DNA of 64,000 nt from positions 256,001-320,000 of the forward strand of contig CAWHWX010000001.1 of NCBI GenBank assembly GCA_963833125.1. Direction: 5' to 3'. Below, one piece after another: positions 37,804-57,066 of this stretch. The DNA comes from Candidatus Bathyarchaeota archaeon (lineage in GTDB: Archaea > Thermoproteota > Bathyarchaeia > 40CM-2-53-6). The position numbers and the translations under genes were made by a program. The notes under the pieces are model-generated. The model did no database searches. It was not told the origin of the DNA and saw only the letters and a list, made by a program, of their open reading frames with translations. Positions within the stretch are counted from its first letter, which is position 1. Each line of letters begins with the position of its first letter.

Positions 37804-38118
37804 TTATCCCTACCTGTAGGCCTCGACAAAAACAAGCTAACTTTCACAGTACAAGAAGCTTTGCAAACCAGAAACGTGCATGACCTTAGGAGCCAAGATG
37901 AGGGTAGCGATTACTGAAAACTCGGACAGGCTAAGGCTGATAGAGAGAATACCACCAAAGTCCACCTCCAAACGCTTAACCCGGATTGTGGGTTTCTCAG
38001 TAGTAGAAATTTAGAGAGTTCTCCTACTAACGGGAATCGATAATCGTCTTAATTTCGCGATACTCGACAAGAGGTCTTTTAAACGGAGCTCTAGGAGCAG
38101 GTATGTGGTTGAATTAGG

Positions 38119-38565
38119 ATGGCAAACTTACCTCGCGAAGAGGACACTCTCGGACATGTGATGACAAGCCCAGTTAGAACGATGGAGTCGAACGGAACTG
38201 TAGCCGCTGCTGCAAAAATTATGGTTGAACACGATTTTGGATCAATCGTTGTCGTCGAAGGAAAGAAGCCTGTCGGCATCATAACGGAACGAGACATAAC
38301 GAAACAGGTGATCGGAGGGGAAGGGGTACTGAATGAGACTGTGAAGAACGTAATGACAAAGGGGCTTGTGACCGCACCGCCGAATATGCCCGTTCAGGAG
38401 GCGTTCGAGCTGATGTTGATGAACAAGGTACGCCGCCTCCCAATAGTCGAGAACAACAACATTGTAGGCATCGTGACGGTGAAAGACCTTATGCGATGGG
38501 TCCTACGAGTCTCCTATGAACCTAACATTCCAAAACACATCAAAATGATTCTAGAAGCACCGTAA
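38119..38565 (+). CDS. CBS-domain pair protein (paralog of 5387-5923)
   Basis: VGIITERD, RRLP, shared RWVLRV.YEP tail; TTTTAAA box at about 38077. Confidence 0.9.
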   Translation: MANLPREEDTLGHVMTSPVRTMESNGTVAAAAKIMVEHDFGSIVVVEGKKPVGIITERDITKQVIGGEGVLNETVKNVMTKGLVTAPPNMPVQEAFELMLMNKVRRLPIVENNNIVGIVTVKDLMRWVLRVSYEPNIPKHIKMILEAP

Positions 38566-38630
38566 AACAACCCAGCCGCTGACACACCGGGTCTTCTACG
38601 CAGGGTTTTGTCCTCGAGGAGGAGCAATCA

Positions 38631-39776
38631 TTGAGAGTGGCAGTTTTCGGCTCCGGTCTCATGGGTTCGACTATAGCTCGTGACCTGGCAAGGTCAAAAC
38701 GTGTTGATGAAGTAACGGTTTACGACGTTGACCGCAATCGGCTGCGTGATTTGGCCGATAGGGATCATTCAGCGAAACTTTCAATTAAGATTCATGATGT
38801 CCGAAAGAAGGCTAAAACTGCAAAGTTACTGAAAAGATTCGACGTCGGTGTGGGGGCTTTACCTCACGGGTTAAGTGAGTACGCAATTTCAGCAACGATC
38901 ACGGCGGGCGTTGATTTTGTTGACCTTATTTTTGGTTGGCGATTCGGTCAACGGGAGATACATTCAGCGGCGAAGAGAAAAGGGATAACGATCATTCCCG
39001 CGTGCGGTTTAGCCCCAGGTCTAACAAACATTCTTGCTATGGATGCAGCCGAACGAATGAGTAGGGTCGATGAGGTCCACATTAAGGTAGGCGGCATCCC
39101 AGAAAAACCAAAACCACCCTTAAACTATCGAATAGTATTCTCCTTCGAGGCAGTCCTTGAAGAATACCTTCGGAAAGCCCGCATCATAAAGAAAGGAAAA
39201 ATCACTGATGTCCCAGCGCTCTCCGGCCTTGAGACCATATCATTCCACGCACCAATTGGCAGGTGCGAATGCTTCTACACCGACGGCCTCTCAACCCTCG
39301 TTCAAACGCTTAGGAAAGTGCGTGAGATGGATGAGAAGACAATCCGTTGGCCTGGCCATGCAGAGCAGATAAGAACTCTCATAGAGTGCGGCCTACTCGA
39401 AACTAAACCCATGCTCTTTCAGGGACAACCCATCGCTCCCAGAAAATTCGTCTCTACCCTGTTGTCTGACAAGTTGAGTCTGGGAAGGGAGAAAGACCTA
39501 ACGCTCCTCAGAGTTGACGTATCTGGGAAGACCGATGGGGGGCTAGTCCACCGCCGATATGAAATGATAGATCATTATGACACAAGGCAGGCAACGACCT
39601 CCATGGCCAGAACCACCGCCTTTCCATGCTCGATAGCCGCACAACTACTAGCATCAGGAGAAATAGCCCAGAAAGGTTTGGTCCCACCCGAACTTGCGTT
39701 CAAACAGGACCTGCGGCCTGAATTCTTAGATTATCTGGCAAACAGAGGCATGGAGATCACATCAAAATCCATTTGA
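38631..39776 (+). CDS. Saccharopine dehydrogenase/lysine 6-dehydrogenase family
   Basis: VFGSGLMG, CGLAPG, VGGIP..PPLNY, TDGL, EKTIRWPGH, MARTT. Confidence 0.88.
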   Translation: MRVAVFGSGLMGSTIARDLARSKRVDEVTVYDVDRNRLRDLADRDHSAKLSIKIHDVRKKAKTAKLLKRFDVGVGALPHGLSEYAISATITAGVDFVDLIFGWRFGQREIHSAAKRKGITIIPACGLAPGLTNILAMDAAERMSRVDEVHIKVGGIPEKPKPPLNYRIVFSFEAVLEEYLRKARIIKKGKITDVPALSGLETISFHAPIGRCECFYTDGLSTLVQTLRKVREMDEKTIRWPGHAEQIRTLIECGLLETKPMLFQGQPIAPRKFVSTLLSDKLSLGREKDLTLLRVDVSGKTDGGLVHRRYEMIDHYDTRQATTSMARTTAFPCSIAAQLLASGEIAQKGLVPPELAFKQDLRPEFLDYLANRGMEITSKSI

Positions 39777-39922
39777 AAGAGGTAAGAAATCAGTTCTGCG
39801 CTCTTTGAAACGGTCACTCTAACGTTACGAGTTCATAATCAGTTGTGGGAACCGTTAGTCCTGCTTATATCAAAAATTCGTCCCTCAGACCTTAGAGGAT
39901 TTTCTCGGGAGCGCGATTACCG

Positions 39923-40777
39923 ATGGTTCATCTTCAAGCCCCATCACGGTTAGACACTATCCGCGATGTTATGACCAGATGGGTCATTACGGTCTCCCCA
40001 TCGGATTCGTTGCTGAAAGCACGGGACGTGATGACCCAAAATCGGACATCTCAACTCGTTGTCGTTGATCAAAACAACCGGCCCATAGGCTCAGTTTCAA
40101 AACGCGACGTTGCGAGATTCCTACTCGACGATGTTACGACTCGCGACCTAGGGCAGATAACGGTCTCCGAGGCCTCACCAAAGCCCGTTTCCACTATAGG
40201 AGCCGATGTGAGCGTGCTCGATGCAGCACGCATGTTCGACGAGAACGACCTGGTATACGCAGTAGTAACAAATGATGATCCACTATCCGGAATCATAACA
40301 GAAACTGATCTTTGCCATTACTTTTCACAGAAATGGCCTGGGAAATTCAAGGTGGGCGATTTCATGACTACTGACTTTATGTTCGCCAAGAGCAACTACC
40401 CGGTCGTTCACGTGGCAAATGGAATCATCTTCCGACAACCGAGCGTTCCAGTCATCGACGAAGACCTTGTCGGTATACTAACACTCTCAGACTTGCTCTC
40501 GATTGGCGAAAAGATACCCGCACCGAAGAGCGCAGGAGTGCATGTAAACGGCAAAGCCGAGCTTGCTTTAATCACAACCAAGGACTTGATGACCCTTAAC
40601 CCAATTACAACTAGTGAGGGAACTGATCTCGCGCAAGCCGCTCAGATAATAATCAAGAAAAGCATAAGCAGCCTACCTGTAGTCGATATAGAATCCAAAG
40701 TTGTCGGCCTCATCACCAAACGCGATATCGTCAAAGCCCTTGGACAGATCGATAGAAAACTGATCCTGGAAGCATAG
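39923..40777 (+). CDS. Four-CBS-domain protein
   Basis: Four CBS repeats (SKRD, IITETD, LTLSD, ITKRD). Confidence 0.88.
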   Translation: MVHLQAPSRLDTIRDVMTRWVITVSPSDSLLKARDVMTQNRTSQLVVVDQNNRPIGSVSKRDVARFLLDDVTTRDLGQITVSEASPKPVSTIGADVSVLDAARMFDENDLVYAVVTNDDPLSGIITETDLCHYFSQKWPGKFKVGDFMTTDFMFAKSNYPVVHVANGIIFRQPSVPVIDEDLVGILTLSDLLSIGEKIPAPKSAGVHVNGKAELALITTKDLMTLNPITTSEGTDLAQAAQIIIKKSISSLPVVDIESKVVGLITKRDIVKALGQIDRKLILEA

Positions 40778-40911
40778 CCACTTCCCACACAATACGAATC
40801 GAGGGATTTGACTGTGCTGTACGAGATTGCGAAATCATGAGAGGGATTTGCTGAACAATCTCAATTAGGTACTATAGCCTAAATTAACTAACGCAAAGAG
40901 CCTTTGCGCGT

Positions 40912-41547
40912 ATGGATCTCTTTAGTTTCGTAGTTACTGTAATTCTCGTGACAGCGTCCGGTGCGCTAGCTCCTGGGCCACTGTTCTTTGGGCTGCTGAT
41001 GCATGGGTCCAAAGAGGGCGCTCGCGCTGGGTTCTCATGTGCGGTTGGTCATACTCTGGTGGAGTTTCCTCTTGTTCTCGCCCTCTCCTTAGGATTACTT
41101 GCAGCTGCAAATCAACCGACCATAAAGGGAGTTATTGGATTCGTTGGCGGTGTGGGGTTGATCGGTTTTGGTGTGTTGCAGATCTATGACACGATCAAGA
41201 GCAAACCCGAGTTCGGCAAGATTCCGAAAAAAAGTAAGGTCCCCGCCAGCTCACTTATTCTCGGTCTTGCGTTGACGGGGCTGAATCCATACTTCATTCT
41301 ATGGTGGCTCACGATAGGTTCAGTGCTCATCGTTCAAGCTCTCGCTTTCGCGGCCATCGTAGGCGTACTCATAATGTACATTTCCCATGTCTGGATGGAT
41401 TACGCTTACCTAACCGCAATCGCCCACTTGGGCAAGAGAGGAAAAGGGTTAATCGGTTCACGATACTACAAACTCATGCTCATCGCTTTCGGTTTTATCC
41501 TAATCTACTATGGCTCCACCTTCCTCCTCAACGTCGTCAGACTGTAG
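40912..41547 (+). CDS. LysE family exporter
   Basis: SGALAPGP, GH..VE, LNPYFILWW. Confidence 0.9.
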   Translation: MDLFSFVVTVILVTASGALAPGPLFFGLLMHGSKEGARAGFSCAVGHTLVEFPLVLALSLGLLAAANQPTIKGVIGFVGGVGLIGFGVLQIYDTIKSKPEFGKIPKKSKVPASSLILGLALTGLNPYFILWWLTIGSVLIVQALAFAAIVGVLIMYISHVWMDYAYLTAIAHLGKRGKGLIGSRYYKLMLIAFGFILIYYGSTFLLNVVRL

Positions 41548-41585
41548 AGAACACACTGTGAATTCGGTACGCAGCTTTGAGTAGT

Positions 41586-42368
41586 TCAAGTCAGTCTTTT
41601 GTAGAGCTGTCCGATAATCCTAGTTGGTTTCCCCACTAAAGCCTCCACCTTCCAGCAACTTCCTTGTCGAAGGGCACAGAGCAGGACTGTGGCCGGACCG
41701 GCAGATTTCTCAAGATCTACTCCTGGCGAATCCGATAGTCTAACCGAAAGGTTGGAACCTTTCGCCATTGTTCTGGCTTCTTTAAGAATTCCCCGTGAGC
41801 CTACAGGAATTATTTCATGCACGAATGGCTTGTCGCGAACTTTTAGGATATCCAGTGGATCCGCGATTTTTCGACTCGCTGCTCCTCGCAGAACTTCTTG
41901 TCCAACATGCGGCTCACCGACAGCAACTACTTCGTCCCCCGGTCTACATCGACCTACCTTAAGCCTTGAAGCAGATACAAAACCCATCGTTGTTACTCCA
42001 ATGCCGGTCTGACTTACTTTCACGTTCTTTTCGGAGCTGGATAGGATCCGTACTTTGCGGAGCCGTGCATACCGCACTTCGTCTAACATTCCCTTGATGA
42101 TTTGGTTGCCAGTCGGTTCAGGCTCAACCGACAATGTCCCGACAATGGCTGTTGGATTAGCGCCAATTGCGAGCAGTTCCATCAGAGCCACTCTAGCTGT
42201 CATCTTCCCCACAAACCACGGACTGGCTCTAACCCTATCGTGTACTTTCGAGCCGATTCCTCCAGCCGCGTCGCAGCTCACCGCGAGCAGTCGATCCCTA
42301 CTAACTCTCAGAAGGAGCAAGTCTCTACATGTTCTGATAGACCTTGGTGCCGCAGAGGACCCGGTCAT
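41586..42368 (-). CDS. cblS: Alpha-ribazole kinase (AIR-synthase/PurM-like fold)
   Basis: RDL...SCDAAGGIGSK.HD, RVALMELLA.GA, EPTG..II.G, SSEKN..SQTGIGVT, EIIPVGSRG, KSAGPAT; ATGA overlap with the cblT stop. Confidence 0.8.
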   Translation of the reverse strand: MTGSSAAPRSIRTCRDLLLLRVSRDRLLAVSCDAAGGIGSKVHDRVRASPWFVGKMTARVALMELLAIGANPTAIVGTLSVEPEPTGNQIIKGMLDEVRYARLRKVRILSSSEKNVKVSQTGIGVTTMGFVSASRLKVGRCRPGDEVVAVGEPHVGQEVLRGAASRKIADPLDILKVRDKPFVHEIIPVGSRGILKEARTMAKGSNLSVRLSDSPGVDLEKSAGPATVLLCALRQGSCWKVEALVGKPTRIIGQLYKRLT

Positions 42369-42865
42369 GTCCTTAGTCTTCTTCTTACCGCAACGTAAAG
42401 GACTGCACCAATTGCACCGTTGACACAGGCCGCCAGAAACAGGAGCGGGATAAAGCTCAATGTGGCAGCCATGCCCAGAACTGGAATAGCTACAACGACT
42501 AGAGCCGTATTGATTGCGATGCCTGCGGCAACGGCTGGGAAAGCGTTCCATTTCCTATTGATTGTACCAACTGCGGCTCCAGCAACGGCGAGGCCCAACG
42601 CGATTGGTAGATGGAGGATTCCAAGTGGAAAACCATGGACAATCGCCGTTGCCATGTGGCCTAGCCCAAACACGCAAAAACCGTCCACGGGACCGAAGTA
42701 TAATGCGACGAAGAAGCCGGGGGCTGAATCAAGTGCGACTGTTGAGACGGGACTGGGAAGTTGAATAAAGGAACCTACGACAGACAAAGCTGCAAACACC
42801 GTTATCCGTGCGACCAGGTATGTCCGTGGTACATTTCTTGGATTGGGATTGAACATGGACTTCAC
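42365..42865 (-). CDS. cblT: Alpha-ribazole transporter, ECF-type S component
   Basis: VALDSAPGF...FGP..G....GH......GFPL..H pattern; adjacent to cblS. Confidence 0.75.
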   Translation of the reverse strand: MKSMFNPNPRNVPRTYLVARITVFAALSVVGSFIQLPSPVSTVALDSAPGFFVALYFGPVDGFCVFGLGHMATAIVHGFPLGILHLPIALGLAVAGAAVGTINRKWNAFPAVAAGIAINTALVVVAIPVLGMAATLSFIPLLFLAACVNGAIGAVLYVAVRRRLRT

Positions 42866-42873
42866 TTTAGCAG

Positions 42874-43500
42874 TTATCTTGCGCTGTTGGTTCCTCTCTT
42901 GTCGGAGAACCTTTTCCTGGCGAGATCAAGCTCGCTTGACGTGTTAACATTAAGAACTACATCACCCGAGTCGATTACGAATATCGTCTGATCCAGCTCT
43001 CCCTCGTCGATACGTCTACCGTTGATCAGGTTGATTCCGACGGGTACGAAATCCTGGCCATCAACCTTGAACAGGTACTGTGGTTTCGAACCGATTTCGT
43101 CATACACCTCAGGTTTGGCCATGACTGCCAACGCTGGTTTGCCTGAACTACGATACTTTTGCACGACTCGCTCAACGATGTCTACGGTTATGAATGGAAG
43201 GTCGGAGGAAACAACCAGAACATCGCCAAGGGAGAGTTGTCGAATAGCAAAGTGCATATCCTCTTCGAAGCCGTCACCAGGCGTAACTAGTACCTCAACT
43301 CCTAGCCTCCTGGCTTCGATGCTGGTTGATGGGGTCTTGGTGCTTGAGGCAACTACAATTCTATCTACGCTCGTCTGTTTGAGCACTTGGATTACAATTT
43401 GCAGCATCGACTTGCCTGAGACTTCTAGAAGTGGCTTCTCTACTTTGGATCCCATCCGACTTGCTCGGCCGCCCGCCATTACTAGAGCAGTCATGCCCAC
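42874..43500 (-). CDS. cobY: GTP:adenosylcobinamide-phosphate guanylyltransferase (archaeal)
   Basis: MAGGRASRM..EKPL, SSDLP, PVGIN, NVNT..EL; follows cobS. Confidence 0.88.
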   Translation of the reverse strand: MGMTALVMAGGRASRMGSKVEKPLLEVSGKSMLQIVIQVLKQTSVDRIVVASSTKTPSTSIEARRLGVEVLVTPGDGFEEDMHFAIRQLSLGDVLVVSSDLPFITVDIVERVVQKYRSSGKPALAVMAKPEVYDEIGSKPQYLFKVDGQDFVPVGINLINGRRIDEGELDQTIFVIDSGDVVLNVNTSSELDLARKRFSDKRGTNSAR

Positions 43501-44246
43501 TTCAAGAACACCAAAACCAGAATGAGCGAGATTGCCCGCGAAATCTCATTCGTAGCGCCCAGCACGTCACCTGTTATTCCTCCGAAGTGGCGATTGGACA
43601 CAGTGATCATTACCAAGGCGGTGATAATCGCGCCGATAACAACTGGTACGCCACCAAACCTCAATGACAGAAATGAAATTACAAGAATAATCACGCAGGA
43701 GAGTCCCAGACGCAAAGCGCGTTTGTGATGCATTGCGTCAACGAAAATGCTGTTCATACCCTTATGCGCAGACTTACCCATAGCTGCGGCAAGGACCATT
43801 GAGAATCCTGCAGCTGATTCCGACACGATGATGCCGGGGACAATCAAGGGTGGCGGTAAGGCAGCGATGGAGAATGCAGCTGTACCAAGAATGATTAGAC
43901 CTAAAGAGAAACCACCTGCCCCTGTTGTGGGATCGCGCATAACCCGTAATTTCCCACTCGGTGAACCATGAAACATTATCCCATCGCCGAAATCGAGCAA
44001 ACCATCCACATGTTGGGCACCATTAATGAGAAGAAGCAACCCCAACCCGATCATCCCTGCTACAAGTTGGGGTAAGACTAGTTGGAGAGCCCAGACAACT
44101 GCGCCCGCCATCAAGCCGGTTATCGCACCAATCAGTGGGAATAATGGCATGTACGACGCTGCTTGAGTGACACCGTCTCGGTCCATTCCAACTGGAATTA
44201 TCGTCAAGAAGGCGAAGGAGTTCTTCAGCCCACGCAGAATGCTCAA
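43491..44246 (-). CDS. cobS: Adenosylcobinamide-GDP ribazoletransferase (cobalamin synthase)
   Basis: FLTIIP, HVDGLLDFGDG, VMRDPTTGAGG, FGGITGDVLGATNE. Confidence 0.95.
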   Translation of the reverse strand: MSILRGLKNSFAFLTIIPVGMDRDGVTQAASYMPLFPLIGAITGLMAGAVVWALQLVLPQLVAGMIGLGLLLLINGAQHVDGLLDFGDGIMFHGSPSGKLRVMRDPTTGAGGFSLGLIILGTAAFSIAALPPPLIVPGIIVSESAAGFSMVLAAAMGKSAHKGMNSIFVDAMHHKRALRLGLSCVIILVISFLSLRFGGVPVVIGAIITALVMITVSNRHFGGITGDVLGATNEISRAISLILVLVFLKWA

Positions 44247-44253
44247 GGGGGAT

Positions 44254-44748
44254 TCATCTTACACTCTGCCGAAGAGCTTGGGAGTACATATTCGAAGAAC
44301 AGCCCGCGATAAGTCCGCCCACAGCGTCATTCATTATCGGCCCCAGTTTTGCCAGGATACCGGGTTTATTCTGGTCGAACCGAATGAATTCGAAAATACC
44401 CTTCGCACCGGCGATGTAGTTTGCAATCGTCATCCCAAGAAGTTCGTCAGTTACGAGGCCGGGACGACCCATAAATCGTTCGATGGTAAGATTCGGTATC
44501 AATCCAACCTTAGCGTCCTCCTCGGCGCGGTAGCATGCCACTACTAACGTGGAAACGTTGACATCTGTGAGAGCCTCGCGGAATTGCTCTAGGATTATCT
44601 GTGTTGCCTTTTCACTGTTTTCCACTCCAGGATGCGGAACAAACAGTACCAGCGCCGTCTCAACCAAATCCTTCAACGTGACGCCCCTTTCCTCCAGATA
44701 GCGTAGAAGTGGCGGGTTCCCGATGATTTGACCGTTCAAGTCTGGCAT
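44254..44748 (-). CDS. cobZ: Archaeal alpha-ribazole-phosphate phosphatase
   Basis: DVNV..L, DELLGM.IANYIAG.KG.FEF.RFD..KPGIL..LGP..DA.GGLIAG; precedes cobS. Confidence 0.85.
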   Translation of the reverse strand: MPDLNGQIIGNPPLLRYLEERGVTLKDLVETALVLFVPHPGVENSEKATQIILEQFREALTDVNVSTLVVACYRAEEDAKVGLIPNLTIERFMGRPGLVTDELLGMTIANYIAGAKGIFEFIRFDQNKPGILAKLGPIMNDAVGGLIAGCSSNMYSQALRQSVR

Positions 44749-44777
44749 TTGTATGACACCAACAGCGCTTTATCTAT

Positions 44778-45404
44778 ATGGCTGGATTATCCAGCCAGGC
44801 CTCCATCGTGGTGCAAAGTCTGCGGTTCAACTCGAAGCAAATCGCTTTGGTTTCCACATTTAGCGCTATTGGTGCGGCGGTCCGACTCTTAGCTAAACGA
44901 CATTGCCTCCGTCACACCCGAGCCCAGTGTACGCGTGTTGTGATCAAGTTAGGTTTAGTGAAACGCTAAGTTTTGTCAGCGGATTTATTTTCGGTCCCAT
45001 CGCGGGCTTTATCACAGGTTTTTTGATAATTCTATTGTCCGATATAGCTAGTCCATATGGGCCAGGTGCTTGGACCCCCTTCATAGCTTCCATAATTGGT
45101 TTGTTAGGAATATGTGGGGGAATCATACGCCGAATTCATCCGACGGCCAACAGTATCGGTCGCATTGGTCTCAGCCGTAGCATTGACGTTATTGAGCGAG
45201 TTTTTGCAGAATGCGTGGGTCTCGTTAACCTACAATATTCCAATCGAGGGAACAATGATTACTGGGATTTCTAGTCTCGTGACCGCTATGGCGAACAATG
45301 TCATCCTCTTCCCAACTGTAGGCCTGAAAACGATCACGTTTGTTCAAGAACATTATCTCAAGCAATCAGATCCCAGCCCGTTATCCAAACAAGTTTCAGT
45401 TTAG
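44778..45404 (+). CDS. ECF transporter S component, CbrT-like (frameshifted)
   Basis: Joined frames: IALVSTFSA...FIFGPIAGF...SD...GPGAWTPF...; divergent from cobZ across 30 bp. Confidence 0.7.
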
Positions 45405-46067
45405 GCTTCTAGAAGATCGATCAGAGTCGGTAGTTCGTTTATTGAACCTAAGAGATAGTCAGGTTCAGTTTTCAGGATCTCGTCCGATTGGAAATGGGCC
45501 AGTGGATACTGCTACGGAGAGCAAGCCTGCAGCTTTAGCAGCCATGATATCGATCACACCGTCTCCAACCAGGATCGTTGCCTCTGTTGAAACGCCCAGT
45601 TGTGCCAGGATTTTCTTAATTGGAGCGCATGCGGGCTTCATCTCTTCACAATCGTCTCTGGTGACGATGGCATCGAAAAACGGTTCAAGGTGATGCCTTT
45701 TGAGAGTTAGTTCCGTGCCGGCTCGACTGTTATTTGTTACTAGCCCAATCTTCAGATGCTTAGAATGCAGTTGCTGCAGCGTTTTCTCGGCGCCTGGGTA
45801 TATGGCAACATCCTCAGCTGCTTTAAGCTCCATTTCCTCGAAGAAGCCATAGAACGTTGAACGTAGCGTCGAGAACTTTTCTGGGTCGCAGTTATCCTTG
45901 AGCTCTTGAAGGATGACGAAGAGGTTGACTTGATCAGTCATATCGGGAGTTCTCAAGCCGAGCTTCTCGAGTTCTCCGAGCGCTCTCCGGCGGGCGGCCA
46001 TATAATCTAAGTTGAATTTGGTGATGGTTCCGTCCATATCGATTATGATCGCTTTGATTTTCAACAA
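45401..46067 (-). CDS. HAD-superfamily phosphatase (frameshift near 45480)
   Basis: DMDGT, VTNN, KP, VGDGVID; C-terminus ILKTEPDYLLGSINEL in a shifted frame. Confidence 0.88.
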
Positions 46068-46137
46068 CGACTCTTCCGGACGTTTCTGGCAAGGACTAAT
46101 AGTCGATTCCTTAAAGGTTGATGATGATTACATTGCC

Positions 46138-46718
46138 TTGGAAGGGCGTTGAACCTGCTAGGATCCATAGATTGTTCTACCCGCAAGTTCCGGTCGATGA
46201 TAACAACCGAGTTTCAGGGGCATATTGGTGGCATGCCAGCGATTTGGTGTATGTCGCTTTCATTCAACCCACCACTAGTTGGCGTGGCGATTGCGCCAGA
46301 ACACGCGACCTACGAAATGTTGATCGGCGCTCGAGCTTTTGGTGTAAACTGGCTGAACTTCTCATTCGCTAAACAGGTAGGTGAGCTGGGTGAAAACTCG
46401 GCCAATGTGGTTAGGGACAAGCTCTCCGCTGTAGGGCTTAGAGTTCTGAAGGGCAATACGACGGGTCAACCATTGATCCGAGATGCGGAAGCAGTCTTGG
46501 AATGCCGAATTCATGAACGGCACCGGATCGGTACCCATGAGTTGGTAGTTGGAGAAGTGGTAGCTGCCTCAGCAACAGAGAGCTTTACTGAGTACTGGGA
46601 TTTCTCAAAGTACAATCCCATCCTCTATGCTGGGACGGTGAATATTGGAGGAAAGAGTTGGGTGTTCAGGTCGGGTTCCGGAGAGAGAGCAGTTGTGCCC
46701 TTGAAACATGAGGTATGA
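46138..46718 (+). CDS. Flavin reductase family protein (frameshifted N-terminus)
   Basis: HRLFYPQVP, SLSFNPPLVGVAI, LEC, IGTHELVVGEV. Confidence 0.85.
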
Positions 46719-46788
46719 GAGGCGTTCTAACTACGGTTTCAGTCAGTTCTATTCCTCGTGATCATCTGTGGACTCAGGAGCAAATCAC

Positions 46789-49160
46789 TCATTGTGCTAT
46801 GCTCTTGACTAGCCGATCATAGGCACGTAGTTTCTCAAGCCCCACTTTGATACCGGTTTCGGCGTCGGAAATGGCATGTTTAGTGAAGAAATCTTCAGCT
46901 TCAGAAACCCGGCCAACGCATAAGACTGGGATGATTGACATGAATACCGTTGAGAGGAGCCCCGTGCCCTCGTATAGCTCCCGAAGTTTTCCCATATTAG
47001 ATTTCAACCATTCCCACGCCATATCCCTAACTTCAGGGTTCTTGGTAGCCGCGGATACTACCGAGATAACATCCTGCCGTTTGACTTCGCCGCTGATCGC
47101 AAAGTTCAATGTTCGCTTAACAAGTTCCTCACTAGCGAATGTTGTCATTGACTGCAGAAACTTGATGCGATCCTCATCTGACACACTTTCCCGGTACTTG
47201 CGCGTTAGACCCTCGAGATCGTTGGTTGATCTGGCATAGGCTATGGCCACGGCTAGCCTCATGTCCGGAGGAGTTTTTCCGTAGTCGTTGAATTTGCGGG
47301 CCAATGTAGCCGCGTAGTCTGGATCAATCACGGCCATCCTGCTAGCCAGCGTGCCTTCTAGTATCGAACTCTTTGCGTCAGTGCTATCCTTGAACGTTTC
47401 AAGTAAGCCGTGATGAATCCTCTTCGAAATGTCCAAGATCTTTGGTGGTATGAGACAATATAGTAAGGTGATTTGGTCTGATAACTCCTGAGCGGGTAGT
47501 GTATCGGTCTCCCTCTCGAACTTGGTCAAGGTTGTTAGGTATTCGTTGAAGTTGGTTCTTCCAGAGATGAGAAATAAGAATGCGTCGTGTATTAGTCCCC
47601 ACCGATCGTATGGTGATAGTTTGCTACGCCAGATGATCTCATCGAGGCCTTGGTAGTGGACTACGTAGAACCCGGTGCGGTCAGGGTTTATTCTCAGTGA
47701 ATTCAAATCGTCAACTACAATGTCGTAATTCGAGTCTTCCATGAGAATGCTCTTTTTCTGATTGTTTACTTCGATTATTATCGGGATTGACCATTTTCGC
47801 TTTGCTTTATCTGGGCTCCCCGAAATCAGGAACCTTTCCTGTCTTAGAGTTAGTTTTCCGTCACATTTGGAAACAGCCACTACTGGAAAGCCGGGTTGCT
47901 GTATCCAACTCGACATTATCTTCTGCACTGGCTTCTGAGACGCGCCCTCAATTGCAGACCAAAGATCATCTCCGGTTGCGTTAGCGTAAGCGTGCGCCAA
48001 GAGATATCGTCGCACACCCTCGCGAAAGCCTTGCTCACCAACGAAGCTTTCGATCATTTGGAGCACGTGAGCGCCTTTCCCGTAACTGATCGCGTCGAAA
48101 ATCTGTTCTATCTCATCAGGTGAAGTCACTTTCACTTGAATTGGGTGAGTATTCTCCGTTGAATCCTGTTCCATCGCGCCAGCCAGCGACTCGACCGAAG
48201 GCTCTCCATTGAAGAAACTGGTCCAAATTCCCCATTCAGGATGGACTGAGTCGATGGCTTTGTAGGCCATGAAGGTCGCGAAGCTTTCGTTCAACCAAAT
48301 ATCGTCCCACCACTTCATCGTGACCAGGTCGCCGAACCATTGATGGGCTAATTCGTGGGCAATGGCCATGGCGGAGCGCATCTTCAGCCTATCGCTCGTA
48401 TTCGCGTCGGCTAGAAGTAGTATCTCGCGAAAGGTGATAGCTCCCCAGTTCTCCATCGCTCCCATGGCGAACTCAGGGACAGCGATCAAATGCACTTTTG
48501 GAAGCGCGTATGGTATCTTGTAATATGAGTTGAAAAATTCGATTGCTTTTTGGGCTTCGTTTTCTGCGAAGCCTCCTAGCTTCGTTTTCCCCGGGGTGGT
48601 TGCGAGAATTATGTCTGTTTCTCCAACTTTGGTGGTTTGCGTTTGGAACTTGCCCACTCCTAGGTAGAGTAGGTATGTTGACATTCGTGGAGTCTTCTCG
48701 AACGTTACAATTTTCTTGTCGCCATCCGCCTTTTGGGAGTCTATGGGCATGTTTGAGATTGCTTCTAGATCATTGTCTATTCTCACCGTAAGTTTGAATT
48801 CGGCTTTGACGTCGGGTCGGTCGACGCAGGGAAGCATTCGCCTTGCTTGAGCAGCTTCGAAGTGAGTGGTTACAATATGCGTATTCTCGTAGGAGGCTCT
48901 GTAGATTCCGGCCAGAGAATCCGGAATACGCCCCGAATACTCCACTTGTAAGACCCCATCAAATGCCCCGCTCTCAATCTTCAAGTCATCTTTCTCTTGG
49001 CTAAATCGAAAAGTTTTCGCGTCAGAGCTAACACGAGTTATGTCTAATGCCACAGTGTTCAGGACAATATCCTGATCTGTTTTCAATTTGACGCAAGGGT
49101 TCCGTTGAACTTCAGCCTTGAAAATCCAGATCGATAAGCAAATCGTAACTTGACACTCAA
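46789..49160 (-). CDS. M1 family aminopeptidase (tricorn-interacting factor F2/F3-like); several indels in the first 25 codons
   Basis: THFEA..AR, GAMENWG, HELAHQWFG, WLNESFA, ISYGKG. Confidence 0.93.
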
Positions 49161-50025: not shown

Positions 50026-51288
50026 ATGAGCAACCAAGACTCACACCGCTCACGCGATGCGGGCCTCTTGATCGGCGCGATGGGTCTAAACTCCCTACCC
50101 TACGGATTCACACTCGTCGTACTGCCAATCTACCTCAGCACTATCGGATTCTCAAGCCAAGTAATCGGTTATGTGACATCAATATCTTCCATAGCCAACA
50201 CGATCGCACTCATTCCCTTCGCCATTGCAGCGGATCGATATGGAAGGAAAGTATTCGTTCTTTTGGGCTTCCTTTCAGCCACCCCAGCTTACCTCTTTTC
50301 GTGTTCACACGGGATCTCAATTCATTATTGTTAGCGAGCGCGATCGGCGGTGTAGGACTTGCTGGAGGATTCAGCGCCGCCGTATGGACACCCGCGTGGA
50401 CAGCGTTGCTGGCCGAGAAGGCCCCCGCATGAGAAGAGGACAAGAGCCTTCGCATGGTCTCAAGGGATATGGACGATTGCGCTTACCGTAGGTTCAGCAA
50501 TGAGCGTAGTCCCCTACCTTCTCCGAAGCCAGCTCCACGTAACCTTCGGGCCGTCGTTTGAGTATACCTTCCTAATCTTCGCGTTGCTTTCATCGTCTCA
50601 GGGTTGGCTATCTTGCCAATTGGCGAGAGGCGAGCAACGAGAGTAGCCTCAAATGGAATAAGTTCGAAGAGTTTGCTACATTCAAAATCCAGAATGCAAA
50701 TTGCAAAGTTCTCAGTGACTATAGGACTGGTTGGCTTTGCGTCAGGCCTTGGGATTCAATTGCTTTCGCTTTGGTTCAATAAGATGTATGGAACTAGCGA
50801 AACCGTCTTAGGGCCTTGGTTTGCAGCGGCCGAAGCGACTTCACTGATAGTCATCCCGATCGTCCCAAGACTGGCGGGGAGTTTAGGTAGTCCAAGGAGC
50901 GCGTTTCTCACCCAAGCCGCTATCGGCCCTCCTCCTGATGTCGATGATCTTTGCTCCAACCTACGAGGTCGCGGCTATGCTCTTGGTCGCGCGAAACTTC
51001 TTCATGAATGCGTCATGGCCCATTCAGCAATCATACCTCATGGGCACCGTGAGTCCTAAGGAGCGGGCGTCTGCATCAGCCATAACATATACAGTCTGGG
51101 GAGTTGGGAGTTCCATTAGCCCGATTCTGGCAGGTTACTTCCTTAGCGGTACGAGTTTCATTTCGATTTCTGCTCCCGTCGCACTCGGAGGCGCGATCTA
51201 TCTCGCTTCCTCGATTAGCTTCTACTACTTCTTCCGAAATATTGCTCCGCCAGAAGAAAAGCTGCTGTTCAGGAGAGGAACCTCTTAG
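50026..51288 (+). CDS. MFS transporter (about four frameshifts)
   Basis: Motif A AADRYGRK, WTALLAE, WPIQQSYLMG..SPKERASAS across consecutive frames. Confidence 0.85.
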
Positions 51289-55120: not shown

Positions 55121-56479
55121 TTGGGCGCTTTGCCGACTATTCTCGTTGAAAACGCAAGAATTCTGCGTGAAGGCAAACTTACGCGCGCAAACATTTTGGT
55201 CGGAGATGGAAAGATCAAGTCAGTCACCGGATCAAAGAAACCTAATTCAGATGAGAAAATCGATGCGAAGGGGCGATTTGTGATGCCTGGTTTGGTGGAC
55301 GGGCATGCCCACCTTTATGATCCCGCTTTCACGAATCGTGAAGACTTCACAAGTGGAACGTCTGCAGCGGCCGCAGGGGGCGTCACCACCGTGATTGAGA
55401 TGGTTCTCACAACTCCAGTCGACTCACCTGAACGGGTCCGGGTTAAGATTGAGGAGGGACTGCGGAGTTCGTTGATTGATTTCTCTTTCCACGCTGGGAT
55501 GATGAATTTGAACAACCTGCCGAATATTTCTGCGATTGCAGAACTGGGCGTGCGTTCGTTCAAAACTTTCACCTGCAAACCCTACTACGCCGACGACCAC
55601 ACCCTTATGTCACTCATGCGGGAAACAGCAATGAATCATTCAATCCTGAACGTTCACGCTGAAGATGAACAGATCGCGAACGAGAACTTACAGAAACTTC
55701 TGGCATTGGGTAGGAAGGATCCGATGGCGCATGCGGAATGGAAACCCAATATTGCTGAAGCGCAGGCGGTGAAGAAGGTTATTGAATTTGCGCGGGGAAT
55801 AGGTGCTCGCCTTCATATCTCCCACATGTCGACCCATGAAGGGGTTGCTGCAGTCAAGAAAGCGAAGAAGAGTTGGGTAAGGGTGACGACGGAGACCTGT
55901 CCTCACTATCTTACGTTTACCCGCAAAGACATGAAGAAACAGGGGCCGTACCTGAAGATGAACCCGTCACTTAAGGGTCCAAGGGATGTGGAGGCTCTTT
56001 GGAGAGGTCTTCGCGATGGAACCGTTGACATTGTAACCTCCGAACATGCGCCTGGCTTGAGAGCGGAGAAGGAGATGGGGTGGAAGGATATTTGGAAGGC
56101 GTGGGGCGGCGTCCCAGCCATTGAAACAATGCTTCCCGTCCTGTTAAGCGAAGGAGTAAACAAACACCGCCTAACCCTTCCAACACTCCAAAGAGTTTGC
56201 TGTGAGAACCCCGCCAAAATCTTCGGCAACTACCCAAGAAAAGGCAACATAGAGGAAGGAGCGGATGCAGATCTCGTAATAATCGACTTGAAGATGAAAA
56301 GAAAAGTCAGGGGAGAAGACCTTCACCAAAAAGCCGACTGGACTCCCTATGAGGGGTGGATTTTGAAAGGTTGGCCGATCCTTACCATGCGCCGAGGACA
56401 AATAATCTACCAGGACCAAGAAATAGTAGGTGCGCCCGGTAGTGCCGAGTTCTTACCCATGTCCCTGGAATCGGGTTGA
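55121..56479 (+). CDS. Cyclic amidohydrolase (allantoinase/hydantoinase family)
   Basis: DGHAH, AAAGGVTT, VHAED, ISHMS, ETCPHYL, KMNP, SEHAP. Confidence 0.88.
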   Translation: MGALPTILVENARILREGKLTRANILVGDGKIKSVTGSKKPNSDEKIDAKGRFVMPGLVDGHAHLYDPAFTNREDFTSGTSAAAAGGVTTVIEMVLTTPVDSPERVRVKIEEGLRSSLIDFSFHAGMMNLNNLPNISAIAELGVRSFKTFTCKPYYADDHTLMSLMRETAMNHSILNVHAEDEQIANENLQKLLALGRKDPMAHAEWKPNIAEAQAVKKVIEFARGIGARLHISHMSTHEGVAAVKKAKKSWVRVTTETCPHYLTFTRKDMKKQGPYLKMNPSLKGPRDVEALWRGLRDGTVDIVTSEHAPGLRAEKEMGWKDIWKAWGGVPAIETMLPVLLSEGVNKHRLTLPTLQRVCCENPAKIFGNYPRKGNIEEGADADLVIIDLKMKRKVRGEDLHQKADWTPYEGWILKGWPILTMRRGQIIYQDQEIVGAPGSAEFLPMSLESG

Positions 56480-57066
56480 CGTACGCAATGTTATCGATAA
56501 TAGTATTAGCCGCTGGAAAATCTGTTCGAATGCGCGGCAAAAACAAACTCCTCACTCAGATCCAAGGAACGCCGATGATTCGTAGAGTTGTGCAAGCGGC
56601 TCTGAAATCAAAGGTGGACGAGGTAATCGTTGTACTCGGTTCGGAGGCGGATAAAGTTCGGAAAGTGCTCACCGACCTCCCTTGCCGGCTGGTTGTCAAC
56701 AAGATTTACGAGAAGGGACAGAGCAGCTCCGTTAAGGCCGGGCTCGGCGAAGTTAGTTCCCTGACGCGTGCAGTTCTAGTTCTACCTGGGGACGTGGCGC
56801 TGATTGACTCCCGATCGATCAACCTGGTCATAGAGAAATACAATCTTGGAAAAAATCCAATCGTGATCGCAGCTCATAAGGGCGCATCCGGGCATCCAAT
56901 TCTCTTCGATAAACAACTCTTCCCTGAGATACAGCGCATTGATGAAGAAACTTTCGGGTTGAAAGCCGTCGTTAAGCGGCATGAAGGGGAAGTAAATCTA
57001 GTTGAAACCGGCTCGCCTAATGTTCTGAAGGATGTGGATACGCCTGAAGACCTCAAGGAACTATGA
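56476..57066 (+). CDS. mocA: Molybdenum cofactor cytidylyltransferase (MocA-like)
   Basis: LAAGKSVRM..NKLL, GQSSS, PGD, GHPILF, DVDTPED; XDH-family enzymes in the same window use the MCD cofactor. Confidence 0.75.
   Translation: MTYAMLSIIVLAAGKSVRMRGKNKLLTQIQGTPMIRRVVQAALKSKVDEVIVVLGSEADKVRKVLTDLPCRLVVNKIYEKGQSSSVKAGLGEVSSLTRAVLVLPGDVALIDSRSINLVIEKYNLGKNPIVIAAHKGASGHPILFDKQLFPEIQRIDEETFGLKAVVKRHEGEVNLVETGSPNVLKDVDTPEDLKEL

Follow-up and report, generated by a model that had tools for sequence, protein, structure and literature searches.

An archaeal cobamide-salvage operon with a predicted CblT/CblS alpha-ribazole branch in Bathyarchaeia

Assembly of the nucleotide loop of cobamides and salvage of cobinamide in archaea such as Methanosarcina and Halobacterium involve CbiZ, CbiB, CobY, CobS, CobZ and an archaeal CobT. 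For Listeria innocua, salvage of alpha-ribazole by the transporter component CblT and the kinase CblS was reportedly described by Gray and Escalante-Semerena in 2010. Here, we analyzed a locus that appears to join elements of both, a minus-strand cluster with the gene order cobZ-cobS-cobY-cblT-cblS on a 64,000-nucleotide stretch of DNA (hereafter, the window) from a Candidatus Bathyarchaeota archaeon, corresponding to positions 256001–320000 of contig C1 of its draft genome (G000; 3.07 Mb in 39 contigs, 87.8% complete, 7% contamination). We consider it probable that this operon is the nucleotide-loop-assembly end of cobamide salvage with a CblT/CblS alpha-ribazole branch, and that it represents an archaeal member of the CblT/CblS system.

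The function of Listeria CblT and CblS is described in PMC4086397, PMC6461909 and PMC5064896, and a bacteria-only study found CblS in 363 of 11,000 bacterial species, mostly Firmicutes (PMC6461909). A second arrangement, from the Lactiplantibacillus plantarum plasmid pMF1298-5, contains a gene called a CblS homologue by its authors and, after genes for EcfT and an ATPase, an energy-coupling factor (ECF) S component that they named CbrT (PMC6722938). CbiR, an enzyme of cobamide remodelling, splits cobamides into cobinamide-phosphate and alpha-ribazole (PMC7733943). Our literature search, which left subscription journals and supplement files 9, 13 and 14 of PMC6461909 outside its reach, found no description of an archaeal CblS or CblT.

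Assignment of the kinase and S-component genes

The Listeria reference genes were taken from L. monocytogenes (PLSDB record NZ_CP030101.1, regions L118 and L120), a record that proved to be a 2.9-Mb chromosome filed as a plasmid. Using a C. tetani family member, we located a 247-residue open reading frame (ORF) between pduV and cobU-cobS-cobC-pocR, which we take to be the position of cblS (presumably lin1110 in L. innocua). The product of the last gene of the window cluster shares 37% identity with this protein over 229 residues (E = 1e-44) and 33% identity with the CblS homologue of pMF1298-5 (E = 2e-32). In the reverse direction, a search of the whole of G000 with the Listeria protein returned the window gene as the sole significant match (E = 4e-35; next best 2.0), and in public sources, the family's bacterial members are named "alpha-ribazole kinase" (Orenia) or "alpha-ribazole-5-phosphate synthase" (C. 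tetani, Angelakisella).

Profile and structure searches placed the protein in the PurM superfamily. It scored 29.1 bits against the Pfam family AIRS (PF00586; cut-off 24), and among the ThiL, SelD, HypE and PurM families its best curated score was 22.3 bits for ThiL (TIGR01379), compared with a cut-off of 184.15. No NCBIfam model naming CblS or CblT was found; in that library, CblS gave weak ThiL-like matches and CblT gave no family match. A PDB profile search with the CblS family returned PurM alone, at E = 0.0065 or worse. The AlphaFold2 model was of high quality (predicted local distance difference test score, pLDDT, 90.8; predicted template modelling score, pTM, 0.89) and showed a PurM-type fold, with ThiL as the top Foldseek match (3.7e-15), followed by SelD, HypE and PurM (E = 1e-12 to 4e-15 for this set). 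Sequence identity to these structural matches was 12–18%, and both this low identity and the ThiL score far under its cut-off speak against membership of the ThiL, SelD, HypE or PurM families. The original prediction had staked the kinase on its grouping with CblS rather than with ThiL, SelD or HypE, and the identity to the Listeria gene, the reciprocal best hit and the ThiL score all bear this out. Judged by sequence, the window PurM-fold protein is a CblS orthologue, with predicted alpha-ribazole kinase activity.

The S component encoded directly before the kinase gene scored 42.1 bits against ECF_trnsprt (PF12822; cut-off 30.7) and aligned with Listeria CblT at 29% identity in BLASTP (E = 4e-11). 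To compare the families at the level of profiles, we used hhalign with an alignment of 14 archaeal orthologues, which matched Listeria CblT with a probability of 97.4% (E = 1.1e-11 over 145 columns); controls gave 0.45% with the CbrT-named S component of the plasmid and 5.9% with a RibU-like S component of G000. In addition, the best G000 match was the window gene both for Listeria CblT (E = 4.8e-5; next best 0.61) and for L. plantarum CblT (E = 4.9e-7; next best 3.5), and PDB sequence searches with CblT returned nothing meaningful. Listeria cblT itself was found with L. plantarum CblT; it lies 38.9 kb from the cblS-position gene, a distance that fits the spacing of lin1110 and lin1153 in L. 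innocua, and a cobalamin riboswitch is located just downstream of it (L120, 1974–2163). The window S component matches CblT specifically and is predicted to transport alpha-ribazole. EcfT and EcfA genes are present at two other places of G000, on contigs C7 and C15, forming two ECF modules.

A further tie between this S component and nucleotide-loop assembly is found in four related Bathyarchaeia loci, in which CobY and CblT are fused in frame (L042:4865-5998, L043:4871-6004, L045:4874-5998 and L047:4661-6004). The fusion proteins comprise 374–377 residues, or 447 in L047 with its upstream extension, and the one that was scanned (L043) contains NTP_transf_3 at residues 5–123 and ECF_trnsprt at residues 225–369. 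The fusion loci stand next to the clade of the window in the CblS tree described below.

Alternation with cobT and distribution of the pair

We next mapped 18 regions from 17 related genomes. A CblS query matched 16 of the 22 other genomes of the genus. Beyond the genus, it matched neither of the two genomes that belong to the same family and 2 of 16 from other families of the order. The complete order cobZ-cobS-cobY-cblT-cblS was kept in 11 of the 18 regions, ten of which also carry the divergent second S component, and this recurrence argues that the gene order did not arise by chance. Two regions have cobS-cobY-cblT-cblS without cobZ, and three are partial (one at a contig end, one with cblS alone and one with cblT-cblS alone). 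In the remaining two (G003 and G005), a full-length CobT (PF02277; 391 and 396 bits) occupies the position of cblT-cblS. A strong CobT occurs in no other genome of the genus (2/22), and both of these genomes are without CblS. Of the contextual evidence, this alternation argues most strongly that the cblT-cblS pair would do the job of CobT, the supply of alpha-ribazole-phosphate. With cobT at this very operon position in two sister genomes and none in G000, the phrase "in place of cobT" used in the original prediction is upheld.

One genome from another family of the order (G033) has cblT-cblS alone, behind the same palindrome as the window operon (L034:9355-10657; see below). This genome has CbiB and no CobS match, so the pair does not always accompany cobS.

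A pattern scan of species genomes, with patterns derived from an archaea-rich alignment, yielded 141 candidates, of which 87 were confirmed and 80 loci were kept. Archaeal labels were attached to 38 of these (Bathyarchaeia, one Hodarchaeota and one Methanocella) and bacterial labels to 40 (mostly Bacillota, with some Desulfobacteraceae). The last two (L041 and L081) bear Acidobacteriota-type titles and the operon of this archaeal genus, L041 being the contig G022:C3, and their bacterial labels probably stem from mistakes in binning or naming. Among the 40 bacterial-labelled loci, at least 16 have adjacent CblT-like and CblS-like ORFs, and cblT directly follows a cobalamin riboswitch in L088 and L078. 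In an even sample of 301 Bathyarchaeia genomes, 43, spread over 14 of 107 genera, matched the family with an E value of at most 1e-20; by score, about 29 were of CblS type (approximately 10% of the 301), 13 had a longer paralogue alone, and one was cut by a contig end. The cultivated Candidatus Bathyarchaeum tardum (L051) is among the archaea with a cblT-cblS pair.

In a maximum-likelihood tree of 85 sequences, the archaeal proteins and that of Orenia fell on one side of a branch with a support of 96, opposite the bacterial proteins, among which those of Listeria and L. plantarum have long branches. Midpoint rooting nests the archaea among Bacillota, with an arbitrary root and a sampling biased by its archaea-derived patterns. 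Within the archaeal side, 14 longer CblS-like proteins (309–322 residues) formed a clade with a support of 100. In other Bathyarchaeia, these are encoded divergently from cblT-cblS, as in Ca. Bathyarchaeum tardum (L051:4466-5404), and they contain an RHH_1 domain, which scored 35.5 bits in L051 and, narrowly missing the cut-off of 20.5, 20.4 bits in L077. The RHH-CblS fusion shares the origin of the CblS clade and differs from the window system in its intergenic motif, which reads ACTAC-N5-GTAnT followed by CTTTTAT. CblS-family scans of G000 returned no RHH-CblS fusion protein.

Operon layout and the divergent promoter region

The ORF list and family scans place five ORFs on the minus strand between 41586 and 44748 (Table 1). 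The listed cblS ORF extends over 41586–42551, and its true start is the ATG at 42368, in agreement with the length of its 15 best database relatives (259–260 residues). Consecutive genes are separated by a 7-nt gap (cobZ/cobS), a 10-nt overlap (cobS/cobY), an 8-nt gap (cobY/cblT) and a 4-nt overlap (cblT/cblS), in which the cblT stop and the cblS start share the sequence ATGA; by virtue of this spacing, the five genes are one tightly coupled unit. CobS clears its equivalog cut-off (TIGR00317, 148.3 vs 110 bits). The CobZ-like protein is just under its own (TIGR03161, 137.8 vs 152.5 bits) and covers model positions 3–140 of 140. The CobY-like protein is under both relevant cut-offs (TIGR00454, 121.5 vs 174.7 bits; NF045495, 109.6 vs 250 bits), and these are still its best families; its gene has a constant place across the genus, between cobS and cblT or cobT. 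Compared with genome G016, in which the CobZ orthologue is 93% identical, dN/dS was 0.05 for cobZ, 0.14 for cobS, 0.23 for cobY, 0.17 for cblT and 0.24 for cblS. The five genes are intact and, by these ratios, under purifying selection. Family scans, the ORF map and the relatives together confirm the five gene calls of the original prediction, as well as the order and tight packing that it described.

Table 1. Positions of the operon genes, the divergent gene and the sequence elements between them.
Feature	Position in window	Strand	Length and basis
cobZ-like, predicted archaeal PgpA-type alpha-ribazole-phosphate phosphatase	44254–44748	−	164 aa; TIGR03161 137.8 bits
cobS, adenosylcobinamide-GDP ribazoletransferase	43491–44246	−	251 aa; TIGR00317 148.3 bits, PF02654 138.6 bits
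cobY-like MobA-type nucleotidyltransferase, predicted adenosylcobinamide-phosphate guanylyltransferase	42874–43500	−	208 aa; TIGR00454, NF045495
cblT, ECF-transporter S component, predicted alpha-ribazole importer	42365–42865	−	166 aa; PF12822, similarity to Listeria CblT
cblS, PurM-superfamily kinase, predicted alpha-ribazole (alpha-riboside) kinase	41586–42368	−	260 aa; orthology to Listeria gene
Further S component of ECF type, CbrT-like, predicted to import a corrinoid	44778–45404	+	two frameshifts in assembly; hhalign to plasmid CbrT
TTTATCTATA, TATA-box-like element beside palindrome, putative shared promoter core	44769–44778	.	read from sequence
Perfect palindrome of 19 bp, TGGCTGGATTATCCAGCCA, putative operator for the divergent promoter	44779–44797	.	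conservation

A CbrT-like S component on the opposite strand, about 30 bp away, had also been part of the original prediction. The gene is present, its ATG lies 29 nt from that of cobZ, and its profile matches the CbrT-named protein of pMF1298-5 (hhalign 97%, E = 8.2e-11); control alignments with two CblT proteins gave 2.6% and 1.4%. The CbrT-named protein, in turn, found the window gene as its best G000 match (E = 0.01), and in a PDB search no solved chain matched the S component beyond chance. The label "CbrT-like" is reasonable but unproven on these profile matches. In this assembly, the reading frame of the gene is split over three ORFs (44778–44969, 44903–45274 and 45114–45404; frames 0, 2 and 0); the orthologues of 12 relatives are intact (179–216 residues). 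Public reads contained no run with this strain (best share of words 0.08). Read contigs of relatives, mostly less than 95% alike, had several indels relative to the window between 44748 and 44943 and broke off near 45145–45153. Other G000 genes are split likewise, namely a major facilitator superfamily (MFS) gene in the window (50026–51288, plus strand; four ORFs), several PF01261 genes, both EcfT genes (C7:72113-72704 and the C15:2982-3362 region) and one corrinoid-protein gene (C1:37455 region). Because of these, an indel-rich assembly is the simpler reading, and the frameshifts may be an artefact.

The palindrome TGGCTGGATTATCCAGCCA overlaps the annotated ATG of the plus-strand S-component ORF, with the TTTATCTATA box adjoining the palindrome toward cobZ. 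The 3.07-Mb genome contains a single copy of the palindrome, and the closest other site has two mismatches. Its 17-nt core had 34 matches with at most two mismatches in 1.2 Mb of related loci, and all 21 distinct flanking segments that were oriented sit in the same divergent intergenic region. In 19 of the 21 segments, 9–72 bp separate the centre of the palindrome from the closest end of the cobZ ORF as called (cblT in G033); in the other two, which are loci without cobZ, the centre is approximately 530 bp from cobS. The CobT versions of the operon are fronted by the palindrome as well. Across 22 distinct sequences (the window and the 21 segments), the core TGGnTGGATwATCCAnCCA is invariant and its flanks vary freely; a TTTAT-type motif flanks it in many, not all, of the loci compared. 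From this conservation, the palindrome is likely the operator of the divergent promoter, for which it is our candidate. With the spacing usual in archaea, the cobZ transcript would be leaderless and the palindrome would fall between the TATA box and the point at which transcription of the divergent gene begins. In the lineages with the RHH-CblS paralogue, the palindrome was sought and not found, the ACTAC-N5-GTAnT motif being there instead.

No Rfam family matched in the interval 38000–49000 at E values up to 0.1, and a sigma-70 and terminator scan found nothing above shuffled sequences, its models being inapplicable to an archaeon. To our knowledge, archaea have no B12 riboswitches. Directly 3' of cblS or cobT, four genomes of the genus encode a winged-helix and DUF4443 protein (PH0730-like; L029:8935-9567, L033:10694-11341, L036:12394-13026 and L037:3033-3665), beside ribose-5-phosphate isomerase; this protein is a possible candidate for binding the palindrome. 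Outside the operon, the window contains a second MobA-like nucleotidyltransferase gene (56476–57066, plus strand; PF12804, 125 bits) beside amidohydrolase genes, and its product is probably tied to molybdenum-cofactor metabolism.

Proposed pathway, rival explanations and comparison with known systems

Taken together, the gene identities, the orthology to Listeria and Lactiplantibacillus proteins, the cobT swap, the conservation and the purifying selection suggest the following pathway, in which we predict what the substrates are, which way they are transported, what reaction the kinase catalyses and what the operator does. The host archaeon, which would be unable to make the corrin ring, would salvage the parts of cobamides. 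CblT, as a solitary S component, would import alpha-ribazole or a related lower-ligand alpha-riboside, driven by an EcfAA'T module encoded elsewhere, and CblS would phosphorylate the riboside with ATP to alpha-ribazole-5'-phosphate, replacing the absent CobT. CobY would convert adenosylcobinamide-phosphate to adenosylcobinamide-GDP, CobS would couple the two halves, and CobZ would take off the phosphate. Corrinoid import is probably the task of the divergent CbrT-like S component, and both transcription units would share a promoter region with a palindromic operator in the regulatory place of bacterial B12 riboswitches.

This route has a gap at its corrinoid input. Genome searches for the genes that the original prediction had named as informative (cobT, cbiZ, cbiB and those of ring synthesis) returned no CobT, CbiZ, CbiB or CbiC in G000, nor CobU. 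Five genomes of the same genus that are 96–100% complete and have the operon likewise lack CbiB, CobT, CbiZ (0/5) and CobU (0/5), and CbiB is found in 6 of the 22 genomes of the genus. In other families of the order, by comparison, CbiB and CobS occur side by side with a weak CobT-type match (for example, G025 and G039). CbiR was considered as a source of cobinamide-phosphate and rejected: G000 has 15 matched PF01261 stretches, and the 10 ORFs scanned from them reached at most 26.3 bits against a CbiR cut-off of 105. In a search of 41 genomes with NF041277, none exceeded this cut-off, and the best score in G000 was 25.8 bits. There is, accordingly, no known source of adenosylcobinamide-phosphate for CobY in G000 and the five near-complete relatives. 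Since these relatives show the same losses with the operon in place, the gap is not a matter of genome incompleteness. The "compact route" of import, phosphorylation, attachment and dephosphorylation in the original prediction is therefore right as to its identified genes and incomplete as to its chemistry, with no known enzyme making the substrate of CobY. We tentatively propose, with somewhat less than even confidence, that most of the genus runs the operon under purifying selection with none of the four known routes to adenosylcobinamide-phosphate (CbiB, CbiZ together with CbiB, the CobU kinase, or CbiR), that an undescribed enzyme (a cobinamide kinase without homology to known ones, or else a novel hydrolase that cleaves cobamides) feeds CobY there, and that the palindrome is the operator of a protein-based, cobamide-responsive regulator replacing riboswitches.

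Several points weigh against the operon being a working CblT/CblS salvage system. The corrinoid input step is missing, and the gene for the CbrT-like importer carries two frameshifts in this assembly. The scores of CobY and CobZ fall below curated cut-offs, and the identity of CblT to its Listeria counterpart is no higher than 29%. The Listeria comparison was made with L. monocytogenes genes, not with the assayed L. innocua protein, and its cblS was identified by position and locus tags. Finally, the roles of the archaeal CblT and CblS are predictions from sequence.

The missing input could be explained if the PurM-fold kinase phosphorylated cobinamide, alone or besides alpha-ribazole, yielding cobinamide-phosphate for CobY, with the adjacent S component importing cobinamide. 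CblS is the sole kinase of the conserved operon, and this role would fit a genome without CbiB, CbiZ, CobU and CbiR, the first three of which are also missing in all five near-complete relatives. We nevertheless regard a cobinamide kinase as very unlikely. In G005, the operon is present with CobT although CblS and CbiB are both missing, so that it appears to persist without the kinase; moreover, the one-for-one swap is with CobT, a lower-ligand enzyme, and the orthology to Listeria CblS is full-length. The missing upstream pathway and the two frameshifts could also mean that the operon of this strain is a decaying relic, its corrinoid importer a pseudogene and the rest unused. This is improbable given five intact minus-strand genes with dN/dS values of 0.05–0.24 relative to G016, and the split MFS, EcfT and PF01261 genes point to assembly indels instead. 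The genome also encodes users of cobamides, namely methylmalonyl-CoA mutase and two corrinoid proteins, together with a PduO-type adenosyltransferase.

A role apart from cobamides, with the transporter-kinase pair handling an unrelated riboside or vitamin precursor (for example, of the thiamine type, as for ThiL) and standing in the operon by chance, finds some backing in the first place of ThiL among the Foldseek matches and in the names that the Joint Genome Institute gives to relatives, which include "thiamine monophosphate kinase" and "selenophosphate synthetase-related protein". We consider it highly implausible in view of the ThiL score (22.3 vs 184 bits), the 12–18% identity to solved PurM-fold proteins compared with 37% to Listeria CblS, the constant place of the pair within cobZSY, its alternation with cobT and the CobY-CblT fusions. 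A CblT/CblS branch for alpha-ribazole remains the reading that we prefer.

Bathyarchaeia are abundant anaerobic archaea of soils and sediments. Alpha-ribazole salvage has so far been treated as a trait of Firmicutes, and sequence, context and the replacement of cobT now establish the pair in Bathyarchaeia. By extension, these archaea are predicted to depend on free alpha-ribazole and corrinoids from their neighbours, a testable cross-feeding link. The finding also exposes the gap in the cobinamide-phosphate source and provides a DNA site that may act as an operator in the B12-related regulation of archaea.

The window operon resembles the Listeria system in that an ECF S component and a PurM-fold kinase would supply alpha-ribazole-phosphate to CobS and that CobT is absent. 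It differs in its archaeal rather than bacterial host; in the adjacency and translational coupling of cblT and cblS, which are 38.9 kb apart in Listeria; in its partners, which are CobY and CobZ where Listeria has CobU and CobC; and in a palindromic DNA site instead of a riboswitch. Listeria has, in addition, a nearly complete corrin pathway (PMC4086397), whereas the host of the window makes no corrin ring. Closer in this last respect is the L. plantarum plasmid pMF1298-5, with cblT-cblS-cobS-cobC and cbrTUV (PMC6722938), where the pair also stands next to cobS and a phosphatase gene, a separate CbrT-type S component serves corrinoids, and the host relies on salvage without ring synthesis; unlike the window operon, it is bacterial and plasmid-borne, has CobC in place of CobZ and no CobY, and keeps dedicated EcfA/T genes beside CbrT. 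The remodelling route of Akkermansia muciniphila (PMC7733943) relates to the window through CbiR, whose products are what CobY and CblS would take up as substrates; no CbiR orthologue was found in G000. With the route of Methanosarcina and Halobacterium, the window shares homologues of CobY, CobS and CobZ, here in one operon. It departs from that route in the lack of CbiZ, CbiB and CobT in G000, CbiB and a strong CobT being absent from most of the genus, and in a lower-ligand branch of the bacterial CblT/CblS type. Together, these comparisons support an archaeal member of the known CblT/CblS system, identified by sequence and joined to the archaeal enzymes CobY, CobS and CobZ.

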